From IMG/VR virus record IMGVR_UViG_2671180814_000012: 5,746 nt of DNA; one strand, 5' to 3'. The notes beneath the pieces are model-generated. The model had not been told where the DNA came from, ran no database searches, and saw only the letters and a program-made list of their open reading frames with translations. This document shows, one piece after another, positions 36 through 5,207 of the stretch; within the stretch, counting starts at the first letter, position 1; each line of letters starts with the position of its first letter. The position numbers and the translations under genes were made by a program. The DNA comes from a virus. Its lineage: Duplodnaviria > Heunggongvirae > Uroviricota > Caudoviricetes.

Positions 36-323
36 TCACAGTACCGCCTCCTGAAAATCACCCTGATAGAAAGCCGGTACACGCTGTCGTTTGCGGGCGT
101 TTTGCCAGTCCTTACGAGCCTGTTCAGACGGGAATAACCCGTAGCCAGAGTTGTATACATCCCCACTGGCAACCAGCTCTCTGGCGAGAACGCTTATTAA
201 ATATCTTGTCGCCCCGGTTTTAGCTTCCAGTTGTCGTAACGTCTCGCGCCCACTCTGGCGTACGAGTTCAACAACCTGCCCCTTAATTTTTTCCCGCTCT
301 TCCTGTGTAAATACTTTTGCCAT
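36..323 (-). CDS. Hypothetical phage protein, about 95 aa, last gene of the minus-strand replication operon in this window
   Basis: Frame open from TTG at 338, but the first ATG (323) follows a G-rich stretch (GGGGG) and gives MAKVFTQEEREKIKGQ... The upstream gene's stop lies at 339-341, so the two are tightly packed. No motif I can name. Confidence 0.45.
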   Translation of the reverse strand: MAKVFTQEEREKIKGQVVELVRQSGRETLRQLEAKTGATRYLISVLARELVASGDVYNSGYGLFPSEQARKDWQNARKRQRVPAFYQGDFQEAVL

Positions 324-338
324 AAGCGCCCCCGGCAA

Positions 339-1064
339 TCACTTTTCCGACACAATACGACCGGAGGAATCGACAATCTGTCGAACAATATCCCGGTGCT
401 TGTTCAGCTCCCGCAACGCGGCGCAGACACGCTCCCACTTCTGGACATGACTTTTCGCCCGACGCAGTTCGCGGTTTGCCATATGCAGCGATGGTAAAAC
501 CAGGTCATCCGCTTGCGTTTCGGTGAACGATGGCAACGACTGCACAATGTCCGCCACAGTTTCTGTTTTAATTTCTTCCTGTGTTGCAGCTTCCTGTACC
601 GGTAACGCAACACCTGCTGGCTGAGGAAAGACTTTACCATCCGTTTCCGCTATGGATGCGGCTTTCGGCTCTGCCGGTAAATCAGCGCCCGGTATGCAGT
701 ACCGAAATTTACCGCCCTGATTCACGCGAATCAGACGCCCTTTGCTGATTGCCATGGCCAGCGATGAATTCGCCCGGCGGGAGGTAATCCCGAACATCAG
801 TGCCAGCTCATCCGCCGTTTGTGGGCCATGTTGTTCAATCGCCTCAGTCAGCATTTGCGCTGTCACTTTCGGTACCGGTGACACTGGTTCACTTTCACCA
901 GCCTGAATCAGCCACCACATCGAACCCTTGTTATCCGCTTCACCACGGCGCTTCAGTTTCCACAGTTCGTTGACCGCATCTTCACGGCTGATTCCAAGGC
1001 GGGACGCCACCACATGTGAAGAGGCTCTTTTCAGTGCTTTCAGTGCGTCAAATACAGTTTCCAT
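339..1064 (-). CDS. Hypothetical phage protein, about 241 aa, possibly a DNA-binding protein with an N-terminal winged-helix-like segment (recalls DUF1627/YdaW-type proteins found after prophage dnaC-like genes)
   Basis: Track ORF 339..1082 starts at TTG; the internal ATG at 1064 is preceded by GGAGGATG about 8 nt upstream, so 1064 is the likelier start ([11 protein letters not shown]...). Sits immediately downstream of the DnaC-like gene (stop at 1086). Family assignment is recall only. Confidence 0.5.
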
Positions 1065-1085
1065 TAAAACATCCTCCAACAAAAA

Positions 1086-1832
1086 TTACTTCACAACTCC
1101 CGGAAAGCTGACATTTGAACGCCAGCTATCCCAGTTAAACGTCACCCACCGACAACCGTTCATGGTCATGCGGTCCATAATCCTCTCACCAAGAAGCGTG
1201 CTCATTGCGGCATGATTCAGGTTTGTTAACATCCCGACACTGCACAGTGATGCTGTCCGGCGATCAATTATCTGGTGCAATACCACCTGCTCGTTTTTCG
1301 TCTCCCGCTGAATGCCTATTTCATCCAGGACCAGCAAATCAACCCCGCAAAGCTCCTGTAAAAATTTTTCACCGGATTTGCCGTTGTCGTAGCTGTCATG
1401 CAACACGCTCATGACATCAGACTCGGTGACGATAATCACGCTGCGCCCCTTCGCCATCAGCCGGTTACCCATCGCCGCTGCAAGGTGATTTTTCCCGGTG
1501 CCGGTTTTACCGCTGAACACAAAATTCGTGCACCCGGTCATCAGTTCGTCAGCTATGGATTTGGCCTGGCTCAGCGCGTATTTTTGCCCGTCGTTCTGCA
1601 CCTGATAATTCGCAAACGAGCATTTGCTGTGCAGAGGCTGGATGCCCGAACGATTCAGGATTTTTTCCACCCGCAACTGGCGATTCTGGCGGTTAATCTC
1701 CTCGCTGCGTTTTCGTCCTTCAGCAAGTTGCCATTCCCGCCACTCCTCCACCGTCCGGTACGGTGGAACCGCCCCCTGTGGTGCAAGTCTGTGAATACGT
1801 TCAAGAACCCCGGCTGCCGCAATGTTTTTCAT
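1086..1832 (-). CDS. dnaC: DnaC-like replicative helicase loader (AAA+ ATPase, IstB/DnaC family), phage replication protein P-position gene
   Basis: Walker A-like GKTGTGKNHLAAAMGN, which matches my recollection of the unusual GKN variant in E. coli DnaC. Walker B-like LLVLDEIG. Length 248 aa. Lies directly after the O-like gene (stop at 1839, start at 1832). The Rac equivalent would be ydaV. Confidence 0.85.
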   Translation of the reverse strand: MKNIAAAGVLERIHRLAPQGAVPPYRTVEEWREWQLAEGRKRSEEINRQNRQLRVEKILNRSGIQPLHSKCSFANYQVQNDGQKYALSQAKSIADELMTGCTNFVFSGKTGTGKNHLAAAMGNRLMAKGRSVIIVTESDVMSVLHDSYDNGKSGEKFLQELCGVDLLVLDEIGIQRETKNEQVVLHQIIDRRTASLCSVGMLTNLNHAAMSTLLGERIMDRMTMNGCRWVTFNWDSWRSNVSFPGVVK

Positions 1833-1838
1833 GCCACA

Positions 1839-2903
1839 TCACCCCCTGAATCCCGGCGGAATTTCGGTATCCGGTTCAGAAATATGATTCACACAACGCT
1901 GGTTGTTCGTGCCGCTTACCGGGAGCAACCAGGGGTTTTCAAAATTCCGGTCCGGCCCAAAAAACGTCGTCGCTCGCTGAACAAATTCCGTTCCCGCTTT
2001 CCCGGTCGCCGCCAGGTATCTCGCGTAACGCCTCACACCATCCAGCATGGTCTCTGGTGGCACCCCCTCGCGCAATCTGGCCTTCCAGGCACTGAATGCG
2101 GATTTCTTCGGGTTTGCCCCGGCACGCAACGGGTATTCCCGCCAGACCTGTTCGAACACATCCGGATAATCCACTCGTCCCACAGGCTGCCCGGTGTTTT
2201 CCGGGGCTACCCGATCGGCTTCCCGCTGAATGGCGGAATCGGCTTCAGGCTGCTGCAGTTGGAGTGATTGCTCCGGCCTTGCGGTCATCACCTGCTGCAC
2301 AGCGCCCGAATCGGCTTTCAGCGCATACGCTGAATCGGCTTCCGGTGTCGAGCCTGCTGGCTGACCAGGATTGACGGTCTGAACATCCCCTGCCTGGTTC
2401 GTGGCGTTTTTTACGCCATGGACCATAGTGTTTTGATCTTCTTTATCTGTATCTTTATCTGTATCTGTCGTGACTCGTCGTGACATGTGCGTGACATTTC
2501 GTGACGCGCCGTGACAATCGCCATTTTGTTCCCGCTTTCTTTCCCTCTCTCGCTGCGCCCTCTTGCGCTCTGCAGGAGATTTTGCGGTTTGCGAAATATT
2601 GCCGTTGTCCTCTTTAAGCACCTGGCGTTTTTCCCATCCAGTGATTAAATCACCATCAAGTACCCGCCCCTGCATCGTCTGCAAAATTGAATCAATTACC
2701 TCTTCTGTCACGTCGAGCGCACTTGCCAAATCTTCTGTCGTGACATCAATGTGACCTCGCGTGACATTTCGTGACGCGCTCACCAGGAGGTGGATATACA
2801 CTGCCATCACTGTTGCAATTGGCTGCCCTGACACCCTGGCAATTGTTCGCCACTTAGGGTCATTTGGCATGTCATGCCATAATCTGAGCCAGGCGTTAGC
2901 CAT
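1839..2903 (-). CDS. Phage replication initiator (lambda O-like functional position) with internal origin iterons
   Basis: About 354 aa from ATG at 2903, preceded by GAGGTG about 5 nt upstream (track ORF begins at GTG 2909). Located between the CII-position gene and the DnaC-like gene. Contains two clusters of phased CGTGAC repeats, as lambda O contains ori. Basic and acidic low-complexity linker (RKRAQRERERKREQ, TDTDKDTDKED). Confidence 0.7.
   Translation of the reverse strand: MANAWLRLWHDMPNDPKWRTIARVSGQPIATVMAVYIHLLVSASRNVTRGHIDVTTEDLASALDVTEEVIDSILQTMQGRVLDGDLITGWEKRQVLKEDNGNISQTAKSPAERKRAQRERERKREQNGDCHGASRNVTHMSRRVTTDTDKDTDKEDQNTMVHGVKNATNQAGDVQTVNPGQPAGSTPEADSAYALKADSGAVQQVMTARPEQSLQLQQPEADSAIQREADRVAPENTGQPVGRVDYPDVFEQVWREYPLRAGANPKKSAFSAWKARLREGVPPETMLDGVRRYARYLAATGKAGTEFVQRATTFFGPDRNFENPWLLPVSGTNNQRCVNHISEPDTEIPPGFRG
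2440..2463. repeat. Tandem 12-bp direct repeat tctttatctgta x2 (with a partial third copy tctgt), adjacent to iteron cluster 1
   Basis: Read directly: 2440-2451 and 2452-2463 are identical. Locally AT-richer than the surrounding gene. Encodes the acidic DKDTDKD stretch of the initiator on the minus strand. Confidence 0.8.
2469..2515. repeat. Iteron-like array 1: five CGTGAC copies phased at about 10-11 bp (candidate replication origin inside the initiator gene)
   Basis: CGTGAC begins at 2469, 2479, 2490, 2500 and 2510, roughly one helical turn apart. Lies in the middle (linker) region of the O-like CDS. Confidence 0.65.
2739..2779. repeat. Iteron-like array 2: four (C/T)GTGAC copies phased at about 10 bp, including a 21-bp exact duplicate of part of array 1
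   Basis: CGTGAC at 2739, 2760 and 2770, TGTGAC at 2750; an inverted copy TGTCACG at 2706-2712. gcgtgacatttcgtgacgcgc occurs at 2489-2509 and again at 2759-2779, exactly 270 bp apart. Confidence 0.6.
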
Positions 2904-2974
2904 ACTCACCTCTTCTGATACCGAATCTTTTTACTCACGAGTTGCCGGGAGCGATTCGATATGGCTATTGTCAG

Positions 2975-3400
2975 TCAATGTACTGCCACAGCATTTCCTG
3001 CCGGGCCACCACGGTTCATCTGATTGAAACCGGCGATTGCCACTGCGACAAAATCATCAGCGTCTCTCACCAGTCGTTCATGCGTCTCCACCAGTTCCCG
3101 AAAATAAGCTGAACTGTGGCTGCGCATTCGAGCCACCAGCGGAGGTGGCATTGCCCTTTCGATCGCAGGTAACAACGCCTGAATTTTTTCAACAGCGTCA
3201 GGGGTGTCTTTATCCAGCCAACGGAAAATCTTTTGGGTGTTGAGATAAAGCGTGTTGTGCTTGCTGTCGTTATGCAGAACCGGAAACGTCATTCCCAGTT
3301 CGAAATAAACCCTGGTTATTTCAGCTGCCGGAACTTTTTCACCGTCCGGATGCGCCCAGGCTTTCATCGCCATGCGGATGTGTTCATGCTTGATTTTCAT
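2975..3400 (-). CDS. ydaT: CII-position regulator, YdaT-like (proposed functional analogue of lambda CII in Rac/CP-933P-type prophages)
   Basis: 141 aa starting MKIKHEHI.... ATG at 3400 preceded by GGGGGTGA. Its start overlaps the stop of the upstream Cro-like gene (ATGA at 3397-3400). Position between cro-like and O-like genes. Family name is from recall of Rac YdaT (about 140 aa), not from a search. Confidence 0.6.
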   Translation of the reverse strand: MKIKHEHIRMAMKAWAHPDGEKVPAAEITRVYFELGMTFPVLHNDSKHNTLYLNTQKIFRWLDKDTPDAVEKIQALLPAIERAMPPPLVARMRSHSSAYFRELVETHERLVRDADDFVAVAIAGFNQMNRGGPAGNAVAVH

Positions 3401-3660
3401 GAATCACCCCCCGCCGATGGTTGTGTGTTAGCCTGAAACTCAGCAGGCAAGCCGTCAGTTGGGTTGGGGTAGGTTTTACTGTCAATCTCATGTGGGGTCA
3501 CCACCCATCCCGTTGCTTCACACCAACGTAATATTTTTTCTCCTGTAAGTTTTGCACGCCCCGTTATAACGTGGCTGACCATCCCTTGGGATGCGCCAAC
3601 AATCTCAGCAAATGAACTCTGGGTTATATGAAAATGATGCAAATATTCTCCAAGATTCAT
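3397..3660 (-). CDS. ydaS: Cro-like HTH transcriptional regulator (YdaS/Cro-CI family), first gene of the early-right-equivalent operon
   Basis: About 87 aa from ATG at 3660 (MNLGEYLHHF...), preceded by AGGGCGG; the track ORF extends to a TTG at 3687. Candidate HTH segment SFAEIVGASQGMVSHVITGRAKLTGEKILR. Divergent from the repressor gene across an operator-containing intergenic region. Confidence 0.65.
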   Translation of the reverse strand: MNLGEYLHHFHITQSSFAEIVGASQGMVSHVITGRAKLTGEKILRWCEATGWVVTPHEIDSKTYPNPTDGLPAEFQANTQPSAGGDS

Positions 3661-3696
3661 AATCCGCCCTATGTGATGTGTTACCAATGCATAATT

Positions 3697-3759
3697 AATA
3701 GCACTGTTATTTTTAAAAGTAAATAGTGATGCTATTTCAAAGTGATTAGCAATCTTATT
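3697..3759. promoter_or_regulatory. OR-like operator region: three 15-bp dyad-symmetric sites between the divergent repressor and cro-like genes (expected to overlap PR/PRM-type promoters)
   Basis: Sites at 3697-3711 (aatagcactgttatt), 3722-3736 (aatagtgatgctatt, near-perfect palindrome) and 3745-3759 (attagcaatcttatt, weakest). Centre-to-centre spacing is 25 and 23 bp. Half-site consensus AATAGY / GCTATT. A candidate minus-strand -35 TTGAAA sits at 3740-3735 with a poor -10; promoter hexamers are not confidently assignable. Confidence 0.6.
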
Positions 3760-3771
3760 AGAATTGGATGT

Positions 3772-4272
3772 ATGAAAAGAAAATCATTGTCAGACACCGA
3801 CCTCAACGCCGCCAGAAGACTGAAAGAAATCTGGATGGCAAAGAAATCTCAGTTGGGATTGACTCAGGAACGTGCGGCGGAAATTATGGGGTTTTCAACA
3901 CAAGGGGCGGTAAGTCACTACCTAAATGGTCAAACCCCACTAAACCTTGAGGCTGTTCTAAAGTTTGCTGGCTTACTGAAAGTTCCCCCTGAGTCAATCA
4001 GGCCAGACATGGTAGATTTGCTGCAAATTGCAAGGATGTATTGTCGAGAACCACAGCAAGATAACATAGTCGCATTACCAGCAGACACAGAACAAACAGA
4101 GGATGAACTACCGTTTGCCGTAGAGCCGATGGAACGAGATTTAATCCATACGTTCAGAGCTTTTCCGAAAGAAGATCAAGAACACATGCTTCAGGAGATG
4201 AAAGATAAAAAAGAATCAATGGATCGTACGGTTGCGCGGTGGTTAGCTGCACAAAAAGGCCGTCGCGCCTAA
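3772..4272 (+). CDS. paaR2: Prophage repressor with a lambda CI-like N-terminal HTH domain and a short acidic C-terminal region lacking a LexA/S24 peptidase domain (RacR/PaaR2-like)
   Basis: From ATG 3772 (MKRKSLSDTDLNAARRLKEIWMAKKSQLGLTQERAAEIMGFSTQGAVSHYLNGQ...), 166 aa. This aligns by eye with the lambda CI N-terminus (...[41 protein letters not shown]...). The track ORF starts at GTG 3742, which would run through operator site 3. No Ala-Gly cleavage site or Ser/Lys dyad context is recognisable. Symbol is recall-based and tentative. Confidence 0.75.
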   Translation: MKRKSLSDTDLNAARRLKEIWMAKKSQLGLTQERAAEIMGFSTQGAVSHYLNGQTPLNLEAVLKFAGLLKVPPESIRPDMVDLLQIARMYCREPQQDNIVALPADTEQTEDELPFAVEPMERDLIHTFRAFPKEDQEHMLQEMKDKKESMDRTVARWLAAQKGRRA

Positions 4273-4291
4273 ATCAGAGGAGATATGTAAA

Positions 4292-4486
4292 ATGAGTACA
4301 GTCCTTTCCCCAATGGTTTCAGAATTTGAGACAGTTGAGCAAGAAAATAGTTACAACGAATGGCTGCGGGCCAAAGTAGCAGCAAGCCTCGCGGATCCCC
4401 GCCCGGCGATTCCGCATGATGAGGTAATGGCGGAAATGGAACAAATTATTGCCCAAATTGCTGCTGCAACTCACAGAGGTGAATAA
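4292..4486 (+). CDS. paaA2: Small type II antitoxin partnered with ParE (PaaA-like, ParE-associated antitoxin)
   Basis: 64 aa (MSTVLSPMVSEFETVEQENSYNEWLRAKVAASLADPRPAIPHDEVMAEMEQIIAQ...). AGGAG 8 nt upstream of the ATG. Its stop overlaps the toxin start (TAATG at 4483-4488). Size and partner match my recollection of the roughly 63-aa PaaA2 antitoxin of E. coli O157; unverified. Confidence 0.65.
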   Translation: MSTVLSPMVSEFETVEQENSYNEWLRAKVAASLADPRPAIPHDEVMAEMEQIIAQIAAATHRGE

Positions 4487-4776
4487 TGTTACCCGTTTTA
4501 TGGCTACCATCTGCTCGTGATGATTTGCGCCAGATCGTAGCCTACATAGCTAAAGAAAATCCCGCGGCAGCACGCAGAATGAAAATTCGAATTGAAACAT
4601 CCGTTTTGCCGCTCACAGAGCATCCTTACCTGTATCCTCCAAGCGAGCGAGTTCTTGGTCTTCGTGAAATTGTAACTCATCCTAACTACATCATCCTTTA
4701 CCGAGTAACAGCATCAAGCATAGAAGTAGTAAATATTGTGCATTCTCGAAGACAGTATCCAGGCAAAAACAGTTAA
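4486..4776 (+). CDS. parE2: ParE/RelE-superfamily toxin (ParE-family type II toxin)
   Basis: 96 aa. ParE-like pattern: N-terminal LPVLWLPSARDDLRQIVAYIAKENPAAARR and C-terminal YRVTASSIEVVNIVHSRRQYP (ParE consensus ...I.I.RVLH.R.D-like). Overlaps the upstream antitoxin by one base. Followed by an intrinsic terminator. Confidence 0.8.
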   Translation: MLPVLWLPSARDDLRQIVAYIAKENPAAARRMKIRIETSVLPLTEHPYLYPPSERVLGLREIVTHPNYIILYRVTASSIEVVNIVHSRRQYPGKNS

Positions 4777-4792
4777 TTATTCCCGCCGACAG

Positions 4793-4818
4793 AACCACCT
4801 TAGGGTGGTTTTTTCTTG
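4793..4818 (+). terminator. Rho-independent terminator closing the repressor-antitoxin-toxin operon
   Basis: Stem aaccacc (4793-4799) pairs with ggtggtt (4804-4810), loop ttag, followed by tttttctt (4811-4818), 17 nt after the parE stop. Confidence 0.7.
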
Positions 4819-4832
4819 CCCCAACAAAAAAC

Positions 4833-4875
4833 AATAGCGATGCTATTTACATCAAAAAAATAATGATGCTATTGT
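4833..4875 (+). promoter_or_regulatory. OL-like operator pair carrying the same dyad motif as the OR region, overlapping a candidate PL-type promoter reading rightward
   Basis: aatagcgatgctatt at 4833-4847 is a perfect 6-3-6 palindrome; aataatgatgctatt at 4859-4873; spacing 26 bp. Candidate -35 TTTACA (4846-4851) and -10 TATTGT (4870-4875) with an 18-bp spacer, both overlapped by the operators. Confidence 0.55.
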
Positions 4876-5054
4876 TTCAGGCGTCAACCCACCCCGCCCC
4901 ACAGAATGCAGGGCAATACTTCGAGTTACCAGACAGTGGTCAGGGGTTAAGTAGCCAGCCCGAGGCGTAAGAACATGACGGCAGGGTTCAATCTTTAACT
5001 ATGCAGCAGGTTTTTTGTTCCGCCACCCCGGCGTTAAGGGGAAATGAGGTCAGC

Positions 5055-5207
5055 ATGGATACTATCGATCTTGGCAACAACGAATCTCTGGTGTGCGGCG
5101 TGTTCCCTAACCAGGATGGAACGTTTACCGCCATGACGTATACCAAAAGCAAAACGTTTAAAACCGAATCTGGCGCGCGTTGCTGGTTAGCCAGAAACAC
5201 TGACTGA
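5055..5207 (+). CDS. Small hypothetical early-left protein, about 50 aa
   Basis: ATG at 5055 preceded by GAGG 5 nt upstream (MDTIDLGNNESLVCGVFPNQDGTFTAMTYTKSKTFKTESGARCWLARNTD). The track ORF begins earlier at 5001 without a convincing RBS. Stop overlaps the next ORF's ATG (TGATG at 5205-5209). Confidence 0.4.
   Translation: MDTIDLGNNESLVCGVFPNQDGTFTAMTYTKSKTFKTESGARCWLARNTD

Follow-up and report, generated by a model that had tools for sequence, protein, structure and literature searches.

The two overlapping genes on the minus strand at positions 3397-3660 and 2975-3400 of the phage DNA analysed here (a stretch of 5,746 nucleotides, called the window in the following) stand in first and second place in the rightward (PR-type) early operon of a lambda-like prophage. 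Taken as a whole, the window represents the part of this prophage that serves immunity and replication. The locus is a variant of an immunity region that has already been characterised, namely that of CP-933P, with the peculiarity that YdaT stands beside a Cro analogue which is not YdaS. We consider it very likely that the pair comprises ordinary early regulators, a Cro analogue and YdaT as CII analogue, and that it is not a toxin-antitoxin system.

Both genes of the pair are present in the list of open reading frames. The frame of the upstream gene spans 3397-3687; the ATG at 3660 gives a protein of 87 aa, while the longer version has 96 aa. The start of the 87-aa protein is the same in RefSeq for the nearest complete genomes (strains RMDEC465 and 90-3040) and for further contigs. 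The downstream gene, ydaT, starts with an ATG and encodes a protein of 141 aa; the calls of both genes agree with those of RefSeq in the nearest complete genomes. Because searches returned 317 homologues (E<=0.001) of the YdaT protein and 27 clusters homologous to the 87-aa product, both open reading frames are, as judged from their conservation, genuine genes. The plus strand reads TCAT at 3397-3400 and the minus strand ATGA, so that the upstream gene ends in a TGA that shares bases with the ATG of the downstream gene. This overlap suggests translational coupling of the Cro-position gene and ydaT.

The minus-strand pair and its ATGA overlap had been pointed out in a first-pass annotation, and the reading frames and the sequence itself bear this out. 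The same annotation took the overlap for a trait of the ydaS-ydaT genes of Rac-type prophages, and this part does not hold. In the Escherichia coli K-12 prophage Rac the last base of ydaS is 1420661 and the first of ydaT is 1420684, which leaves a gap of 22 nt. The identical 4-nt overlap is seen instead in CP-933P, whose published locus we reached through its twin Sp12 in the Sakai annotation. It also occurs in strains RMDEC465 and 90-3040 and in the phages Tritos, 689R5, 673R7 and pPE4.

The pair is followed on the same strand by two genes, one for a replication initiator of the O kind (1839-2909) and one for a helicase loader that resembles DnaC (1086-1832), which were both recognised by phrog, NF and Pfam matches. 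These two genes gave phrog_3729 "replication initiation protein" with E=3e-250 and NF009043 with 499 bits, as well as a match to IstB_IS21. They probably belong to one operon with the cro-like gene and ydaT. The window further contains a DUF1627/YdaW-like gene (339-1082, minus strand) and, on the plus strand, a DUF1391 gene (5001-5207).

The first-pass annotation had likened the pair to YdaS/YdaT, and only the second half of this assignment is sustained. The 141-aa protein scored 36.9 bits with PF06254, for which the cut-off is 21; the scores for comparison are 44.7 bits for YdaT of Rac and 40.9 bits for YdaT of Sp12. It also matched phrog_163 "CII-like transcriptional activator" (E=3e-40) and two solved structures in the PDB, 3c4r (E=3.9e-79, residues 1-141) and 8bt1, which is YdaT of CP-933P (E=3.1e-70, residues 2-141). 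These homology searches indicate that the protein is a member of the YdaT family. Its identity is 76.6% with YdaT of Sp12/CP-933P and 33% with that of Rac; the exact CP-933P YdaT is not among the 120 homologue matches listed.

The solved YdaT combines an N-terminal POU-like HTH domain with a long helix for tetramerisation at the C-terminus; as a tetramer it binds DNA at a defined operator, and its fold is not that of a toxin (PMC9986795). Arg60 is the sole fully conserved residue of helix alpha-3, the recognition helix of YdaT (PMC9986795), and both R60 and W61 of the window protein are identical to those of CP-933P YdaT. Five of the seven residues in the hydrophobic core of the tetramer, a four-helix bundle, are also identical (110, 111, 117, 118 and 121), and the two exchanges, I to L at 103 and V to A at 114, are conservative. 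Formation of a tetramer, binding to an operator and activation of a leftward promoter have been reported for the CP-933P and Rac proteins only (PMC9986795, PMC8630535, PMC11879457). By analogy with these proteins, the YdaT of the window is a functional analogue of lambda CII. Its recognition helix deviates from that of CP-933P YdaT in residues 50, 52 and 53; the alpha2-alpha3 loop and the recognition helix, residues 41-53, read VLHNDSKHNTLYL in the window versus ELYDDSHPEALAR in CP-933P. Because of these differences the range of targets, including host targets, could differ between the two proteins.

The YdaS half of the assignment failed in all of our sequence comparisons. The YdaS family corresponds to PF15943/COG4197, and the curated cut-off of PF15943 is 30 bits. 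Neither the 87-aa nor the 96-aa version of the upstream protein gave a match to PF15943 at E<=10. The positive controls scored 107.7 bits (YdaS of Rac) and 46.5 bits (YdaS of Sp12/CP-933P). BLASTP of the 87-aa protein against these two YdaS proteins returned no alignment at E<=100, and phmmer, run against the PDB at E<=1, failed to retrieve the YdaS structures 8c7k and 8co2, although both are present in the PDB and match YdaS of Sp12. With the Pfam scan, BLASTP and the PDB sequence search all negative, we rejected membership in the YdaS family.

A comparison of profiles with hhalign gave the 87-aa profile a probability of 95.5% with a profile of Rac and Sp12 YdaS together, of 91.5% with Sp12 YdaS alone, of 45% with Rac YdaS alone and of 6% with P22_Cro types. 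The high probability with YdaS was, however, no better than that of the control, in which the 87-aa profile was aligned with the lambda-CI-like repressor domain from its own locus (93.2%). The signal therefore probably reflects only the shared Cro/C1 HTH superfamily, and we did not accept it as family-specific evidence of homology to YdaS. On the basis of the Pfam, BLASTP and PDB searches the 87-aa Cro-like repressor belongs outside the YdaS family.

What the 87-aa protein is instead can be read from its domain, its model and its position. It matched phrog_35 "transcriptional repressor" with E=1.8e-16. With HTH_3 of Pfam it scored 20.8 bits, which is under the cut-off of 23, while a relative from strain 90-3040, which is 82% identical, scored 26.9 bits and is over this cut-off. 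The 27 homologous clusters come from Escherichia, Shigella, Salmonella and Raoultella; all of them are called generic helix-turn-helix regulators and in none of the 27 does the name YdaS appear. An alignment of 15 of these clusters contains 30 invariant columns. The AlphaFold model has confident helices in residues 3-50, and the C-terminal 33 residues are of low confidence. The best neighbours of this model in a Foldseek search of the PDB were HigA, P22 C2, the 434-type HTH/434 repressor and C-protein domains. The search returned only generic XRE folds, none of them at E<=0.001, and YdaS was absent from the top 50 matches.

The 87-aa protein is 38% identical to the DNA-binding domain in the repressor of the same locus (E=6e-7). 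The two proteins have the recognition segment QG-VSH in common (SQGMVSHVITGR versus TQGAVSHYLNGQ). This degree of identity fits the view that Cro and repressor would read the same operators. The protein is thus a small HTH protein divergent from a repressor across repeated operators, which is the layout of a Cro-type gene. We base the assignment on its position, the predicted HTH fold, the 38% identity with the repressor domain and four copies of an operator; by position and predicted fold, the XRE-type HTH protein encoded at 3397-3660 is a Cro analogue.

The four operators are arranged in two groups. The repressor gene and the cro-like gene are separated by a divergent intergenic region of 111 bp, with both genes of the pair downstream of it. 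This region contains two OR-type operators with the 15-bp motif AATAGNNNTGNTATT (3697-3711 and 3722-3736). Two copies of the same motif (4833-4847 and 4859-4873) form OL-type operators, which are located past a terminator-like hairpin of parE (4788-4815). The motif thus occurs at four sites in the window versus 0.10 expected by chance. The location of the OL-type operators mirrors the PL933P/OL arrangement of CP-933P (PMC8630535).

The repressor, an analogue of CI and PaaR2 with 166 aa, is encoded on the plus strand at 3772-4272. Its mRNA is predicted to be leaderless (start at 3772), and the PR start is predicted near 3686. It matched HTH_3 with 35.8 bits and the N-terminal domain of the lambda repressor with E=2.9e-9. 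Over its C-terminal 44 aa it shares 52% identity with PaaR2 of Sp12, and a DicA model matches the C-terminal part. A Pfam search detected no S24 peptidase domain in the repressor. Co-oriented with the repressor gene is a pair of the paaA2-parE2 type (4292-4776). It consists of a PaaA2-type antitoxin (4292-4486; PF21217 with E=3e-23, PDB 3zbe, 75% identity with Sp12) and a ParE toxin (4486-4776; PF05016 with E=1.8e-17, PDB 5cw7, 67% identity with Sp12).

At the other end of the cro-like gene, across the start codon of ydaT, is an inverted repeat at 3390-3407, which we call the YdaT box. The plus strand reads TTGATT-N6-AATCAC (in full TTGATTTTCATGAATCAC) and the coding strand reads GTGATTCATGAAAATCAA. 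The operator footprinted in CP-933P is TTGATTN6AATCAA (PMC9986795), and the box deviates from it by one mismatch, a G in place of T at the outermost base. The Rac YdaT box, ATGATTCATGAAAATCAA, is functional (PMC11879457) and agrees with the coding strand of the window in 17 of 18 positions. We aligned the box region of the window with those of Sp12, Sp11, Rac and the strains 90-3040 and RMDEC465. In this alignment the box and the first codons of ydaT are conserved, and everything upstream of the box diverges. The box is inside a stretch of 30 bp (3377-3406), which in this part of the window is the sole match to Rac DNA; there are further matches to Rac in other parts. Another site that resembles the box, at 717-734, contains two mismatches. 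We rejected it as a chance occurrence, because 17 of 200 shuffled sequences gave at least two matches.

The PRE-type promoters of CP-933P and Rac are located within the cro-like gene (PMC8630535, PMC11879457). A scan of the window for the sigma-70 consensus detected no leftward promoter inside its cro-like gene. A miss of this kind would be expected for a promoter that depends on an activator. By inspection of the sequence we propose, with low confidence, a candidate -10 element at 3429-3434 (plus strand) for a leftward, YdaT-dependent, PRE-like promoter. It is part of a candidate extended -10, TGnTAGCCT, at 3426-3434. The hexamer TAGCCT is 21 nt past the box, and in Sp12 TACAAT has the same spacing after the box. 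The match of the candidate to the consensus is weak (3/6).

These elements can be combined into a mechanism for which the CP-933P locus is the precedent. Experiments on CP-933P have shown that YdaS acts as Cro and YdaT as CII and that the locus is bistable (PMC8630535); YdaS binds the operators and represses the repressor promoter (PMC8630535). In the window, the 87-aa Cro analogue and the repressor would most likely be competitors for the OR and OL operators (AATAG-N5-CTATT), and this competition could create a bistable switch. YdaT would most likely bind the box TGATTC-N6-AATCAA, which spans the start codon of its gene, and, once bound, activate the leftward promoter inside the cro-like gene; this would increase transcription of repressor, paaA2 and parE. 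The ATGA overlap would tie the translation of YdaT to that of the Cro analogue. Any effect on growth upon derepression would be a side effect, either of the overexpression of transcription factors or of the downstream replication genes. By analogy with the homologous systems, it is probable for the window locus that its proteins bind DNA and activate the promoter, that the switch is bistable and that toxicity is absent.

The comparison with CP-933P/Sp12 shows what has been retained in the window and what has been exchanged. The order of genes in Sp12 is ydaT (ECs_2277), ydaS (ECs_2278), a spacer of 97 bp, paaR2 (ECs_2279), paaA2 and parE2; the Sp12 repressor starts with MQKKE, as published for PaaR2 (PMC8630535). 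The window has the same order as CP-933P/Sp12, with repressor-paaA2-parE facing cro-ydaT-O (Jurenas et al. 2021, PMC8630535). Both loci have the cro/ydaT overlap of 4 nt, a YdaT box at the start of ydaT, OL-type operators past ParE and repressors without an S24 peptidase domain. On the DNA level the window is 79% identical to Sp12 at 2986-3406, which covers ydaT and the box. There is no homology to Sp12 in the 800-bp immunity core at 3407-4206. The homology returns at 4207-4425 (the tail of the repressor and the first part of paaA2), and 4607-4733 (parE) and 4885-5044 are also homologous.

The contents of the core are different in three respects. In the Cro position there is an HTH_3-like XRE protein in the window versus a PF15943 YdaS in CP-933P/Sp12. 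The repressor's DNA-binding domain is lambda-CI-like in the window, while that of PaaR2 has no Pfam match. The operators are AATAG-N5-CTATT repeats in the window versus repeats of the GTTTAGTAA type, as described for CP-933P. Since the Cro protein, the repressor domain and the operators all differ, the immunity specificity differs from that of CP-933P. From this mosaic of sequences, the window appears as a variant immunity region of the CP-933P type, in which cro, operators and the N-terminal domain of the repressor were swapped as a cassette (3407-4206).

Other relatives place YdaT in similar surroundings. The Rac prophage of E. coli K-12 shares with the window a CII analogue of the YdaT family, a near-identical box and a divergent repressor, and the genes downstream in Rac, a DnaC-like YdaV and a DUF1627 YdaW, are also like those in the window. 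YdaS of Rac, in contrast, is a member of PF15943 and is unrelated by BLASTP to the Cro-like protein of the window, and Rac is without the paaA2-parE pair that the window has. Lambda resembles the window in having a divergent repressor and cro, which share OR and OL operators, and a second regulator after cro that turns on the leftward repressor promoter; replication genes of the O and P type come next, and the repressor shares its transcript with accessory genes. The CII protein of lambda is, however, structurally unrelated and has a direct repeat as its site, while YdaT, a symmetric tetramer, recognises an inverted repeat (PMC9986795). Compared with lambda, the repressor of the window is also without an autocleavage domain, and there is a toxin-antitoxin pair in place of rexAB.

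In Sp11 of Sakai, the phages vB_EcoS-813R8, 689R5, Tritos and 673R7 and Actinobacillus pPE4, a gene of the YdaT family directly follows and overlaps a small HTH gene in the Cro position and the replication genes come next. The Cro-position proteins of these elements are of the P22_Cro, HTH_17-like and HTH_3 kinds, and most of the loci are without paaA2-parE; several of them are inducible phages and not prophage remnants. Taken over phages and prophages, four kinds of protein precede the genes of the YdaT family in the Cro position, namely YdaS, P22_Cro, HTH_17-like and HTH_3, and swapping of the Cro position ahead of ydaT is common. In a scan of species-representative genomes, a YdaT-family gene was directly downstream in 7 of the 9 species-level loci with the Cro type of the window, and paaA2-parE was found in 0 of the 9.

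This exchange of partners bears on the idea that the pair could be a genuine toxin-antitoxin module of type II, in which YdaT would be the toxin and the HTH protein the antitoxin. The names given by Pfam and RefSeq ("toxin YdaT", "YdaS_toxin") and the two small genes with their 4-nt overlap would fit such a module, and the HTH protein is also weakly HigA-like, with HigA among its Foldseek neighbours and 22 bits with TIGR02607. The cut-off of this family is 47.7, and the score is far under it. Partnership with at least four unrelated HTH families in the Cro position is unfit for a co-evolving toxin-antitoxin interface. YdaT itself, as described above, binds a defined operator as a tetramer and does not have the fold of a toxin (PMC9986795), and replication genes come after the pair on the same strand. 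Furthermore, two groups have rejected toxin-antitoxin status for the YdaS/YdaT pair (PMC8630535, PMC11879457), and the induction of YdaS and YdaT of Rac together had no additive effect on growth (PMC11014345). By analogy with these homologues, the type II reading would already be largely refuted by published experiments, and we regard it as highly improbable.

A different question is whether the Cro analogue and YdaT, as regulators, could be harmful to the host. The first-pass annotation had proposed two toxic functions under one repressor, YdaS/T and ParE. The closest experimental system, CP-933P, gives no support to this proposal: its YdaT was non-toxic (PMC8630535) and does not turn on rcsA, through which Rac YdaT exerts its toxicity (PMC11879457). 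When the YdaT of Rac is derepressed or overexpressed, cells form filaments and die as a result of rcsA activation (PMC11014345, PMC11879457; earlier PMC5700377, PMC5700373). Toxicity by this route is documented for the Rac protein only (PMC11879457). YdaS of Rac was not toxic on its own in a later study (PMC11014345), and in CP-933P slower growth was caused by YdaS or PaaR2 on prolonged overexpression only (PMC8630535). Given the toxicity of Rac YdaT and the slowed growth with CP-933P YdaS or PaaR2, some growth phenotype is conceivable for the window proteins as well.

It seems unlikely to us that loss of the repressor would free a toxic YdaT or Cro-like protein, with filamentation or death as in Rac and with two independent killing functions including ParE. 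Such an outcome could be imagined for a YdaT-family member, given that Rac YdaT kills through rcsA, and the window protein does differ from the non-toxic CP-933P YdaT at the three recognition-helix positions. The locus is, in addition, kept in thousands of genomes (the exact YdaT protein is indexed in 6106 blocks). The overall identity of the protein, however, connects it with the non-toxic CP-933P YdaT (76.6%) and only distantly with Rac YdaT (33%), and in inducible phages the YdaT-family genes hold the CII position and are annotated as cII. The finding that YdaS of Rac is non-toxic alone speaks against a toxic Cro-like protein, and the window protein is outside the YdaS family anyway. The wide retention is explained more simply by clonal Shigella sonnei and by the addictive paaA2-parE pair.

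In a more specific form, the YdaT allele with its altered loop and recognition helix would have gained host targets, and loss of the repressor would be lethal independently of ParE; this too we judge improbable. If it were true, the remnant immunity region would be doubly addictive, and this could help to explain why the decayed segment is retained in essentially all sequenced genomes of the lineage. An ordinary Cro/CII-type pair is the reading that we prefer.

For annotation this means that the label "toxin YdaT family protein" invites a toxin reading, while the evidence points to CII-like regulators of lambda-like phages. Nothing points to a new toxin, and beyond a correct annotation the importance of the locus is small. 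It does show how the PaaR2-PaaA2-ParE2/YdaS-YdaT immunity region diversifies, with the specificity core swapped as a cassette, the YdaT box retained on one side and the repressor tail and the toxin-antitoxin pair on the other. It has been proposed in the literature that the toxin-antitoxin pair protects the immunity region from recombination, and this swap is relevant to the proposal.

The window and CP032523.1 share 99.98% identity, and near-identical proteins are labelled Shigella sonnei. In near-identical chromosomes, IS1 copies and the dmsC/dmsD region follow shortly beyond the DUF1391 gene; the presence of these sequences nearby indicates that the element is a decayed prophage.

When the window was compared with Sp12, the equivalent of CP-933P in the Sakai genome, no DNA homology was detected over positions 3407-4206, the immunity-specificity core. 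This core comprises the cro-like gene, the operators and the N-terminal domain of the repressor. Both of its flanks are homologous to CP-933P/Sp12 DNA; one contains ydaT and the YdaT box, the other the C-terminal tail of the repressor, paaA2 and parE. The last 44 residues of the repressor are PaaR2-like (52% identical). It follows that the repressor is a hybrid: its DNA-binding domain is of the lambda-CI type and its C-terminus, 44 residues long, of the PaaR2 type.

A promoter-like site (TTCAAA, 17-nt spacer, TAGAAT) is located within 3736-3774. Since it ends at 3764, only 7 nt ahead of the repressor ATG at 3772, the mRNA of this gene may be leaderless; in this respect it would possibly resemble the mRNAs of paaR2 and lambda cI, which have been reported to be leaderless. 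Two more copies of the 15-bp operator motif occur at 4833-4873, 3' of the terminator-like hairpin of parE (4788-4815), and they are overlapped by promoter-like hexamers. Judged from these elements, the region looks like an OL/PL analogue preceding the DUF1391 gene, and it resembles PL933P of CP-933P.

In the Cro-like protein, the C-terminal tail (residues 55-87, VTPHEID..YPNPTDG.P; 3397-3495) contains many residues that are invariant across genera; in spite of this conservation the tail was predicted with low confidence in the structural model. The conservation allows two readings, namely that it acts on the protein or that it acts on the DNA. The coding DNA of the tail overlaps the expected place of the YdaT flanking sites and a putative PRE-like promoter.

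In lambda the origin is located within the O gene. At 2440-2515 and 2737-2775, the O-like gene of the window contains clusters of GTGAC-containing repeats, for example CGTGACATTTCGTGACGCG, which is present twice, and a tandem of two TCTTTATCTGTA units; these repeats may be origin iterons. Some of the strains whose chromosomes carry the window have a split O-like gene or a shorter call for the repressor (145 or 161 aa).

At 28556-29937 of locus L004, Sakai Sp11 has a second YdaT-family gene, together with a P22_Cro-type gene (17-nt overlap). The Sakai genome hence carries two YdaT alleles, in Sp11 and Sp12, which share the same box. The repressor ORF of Sp11 looks truncated, with the S24 peptidase as the only domain kept.

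In the host chromosomes that carry the window (L012-L016), IS1 copies and the dmsC/dmsD region are found a short distance past the DUF1391 gene. A few genes past the DUF977 gene, the same chromosomes encode an N6_Mtase/Eco57I protein and a restriction enzyme of the BsuBI/PstI type, which likely constitute a restriction-modification system.
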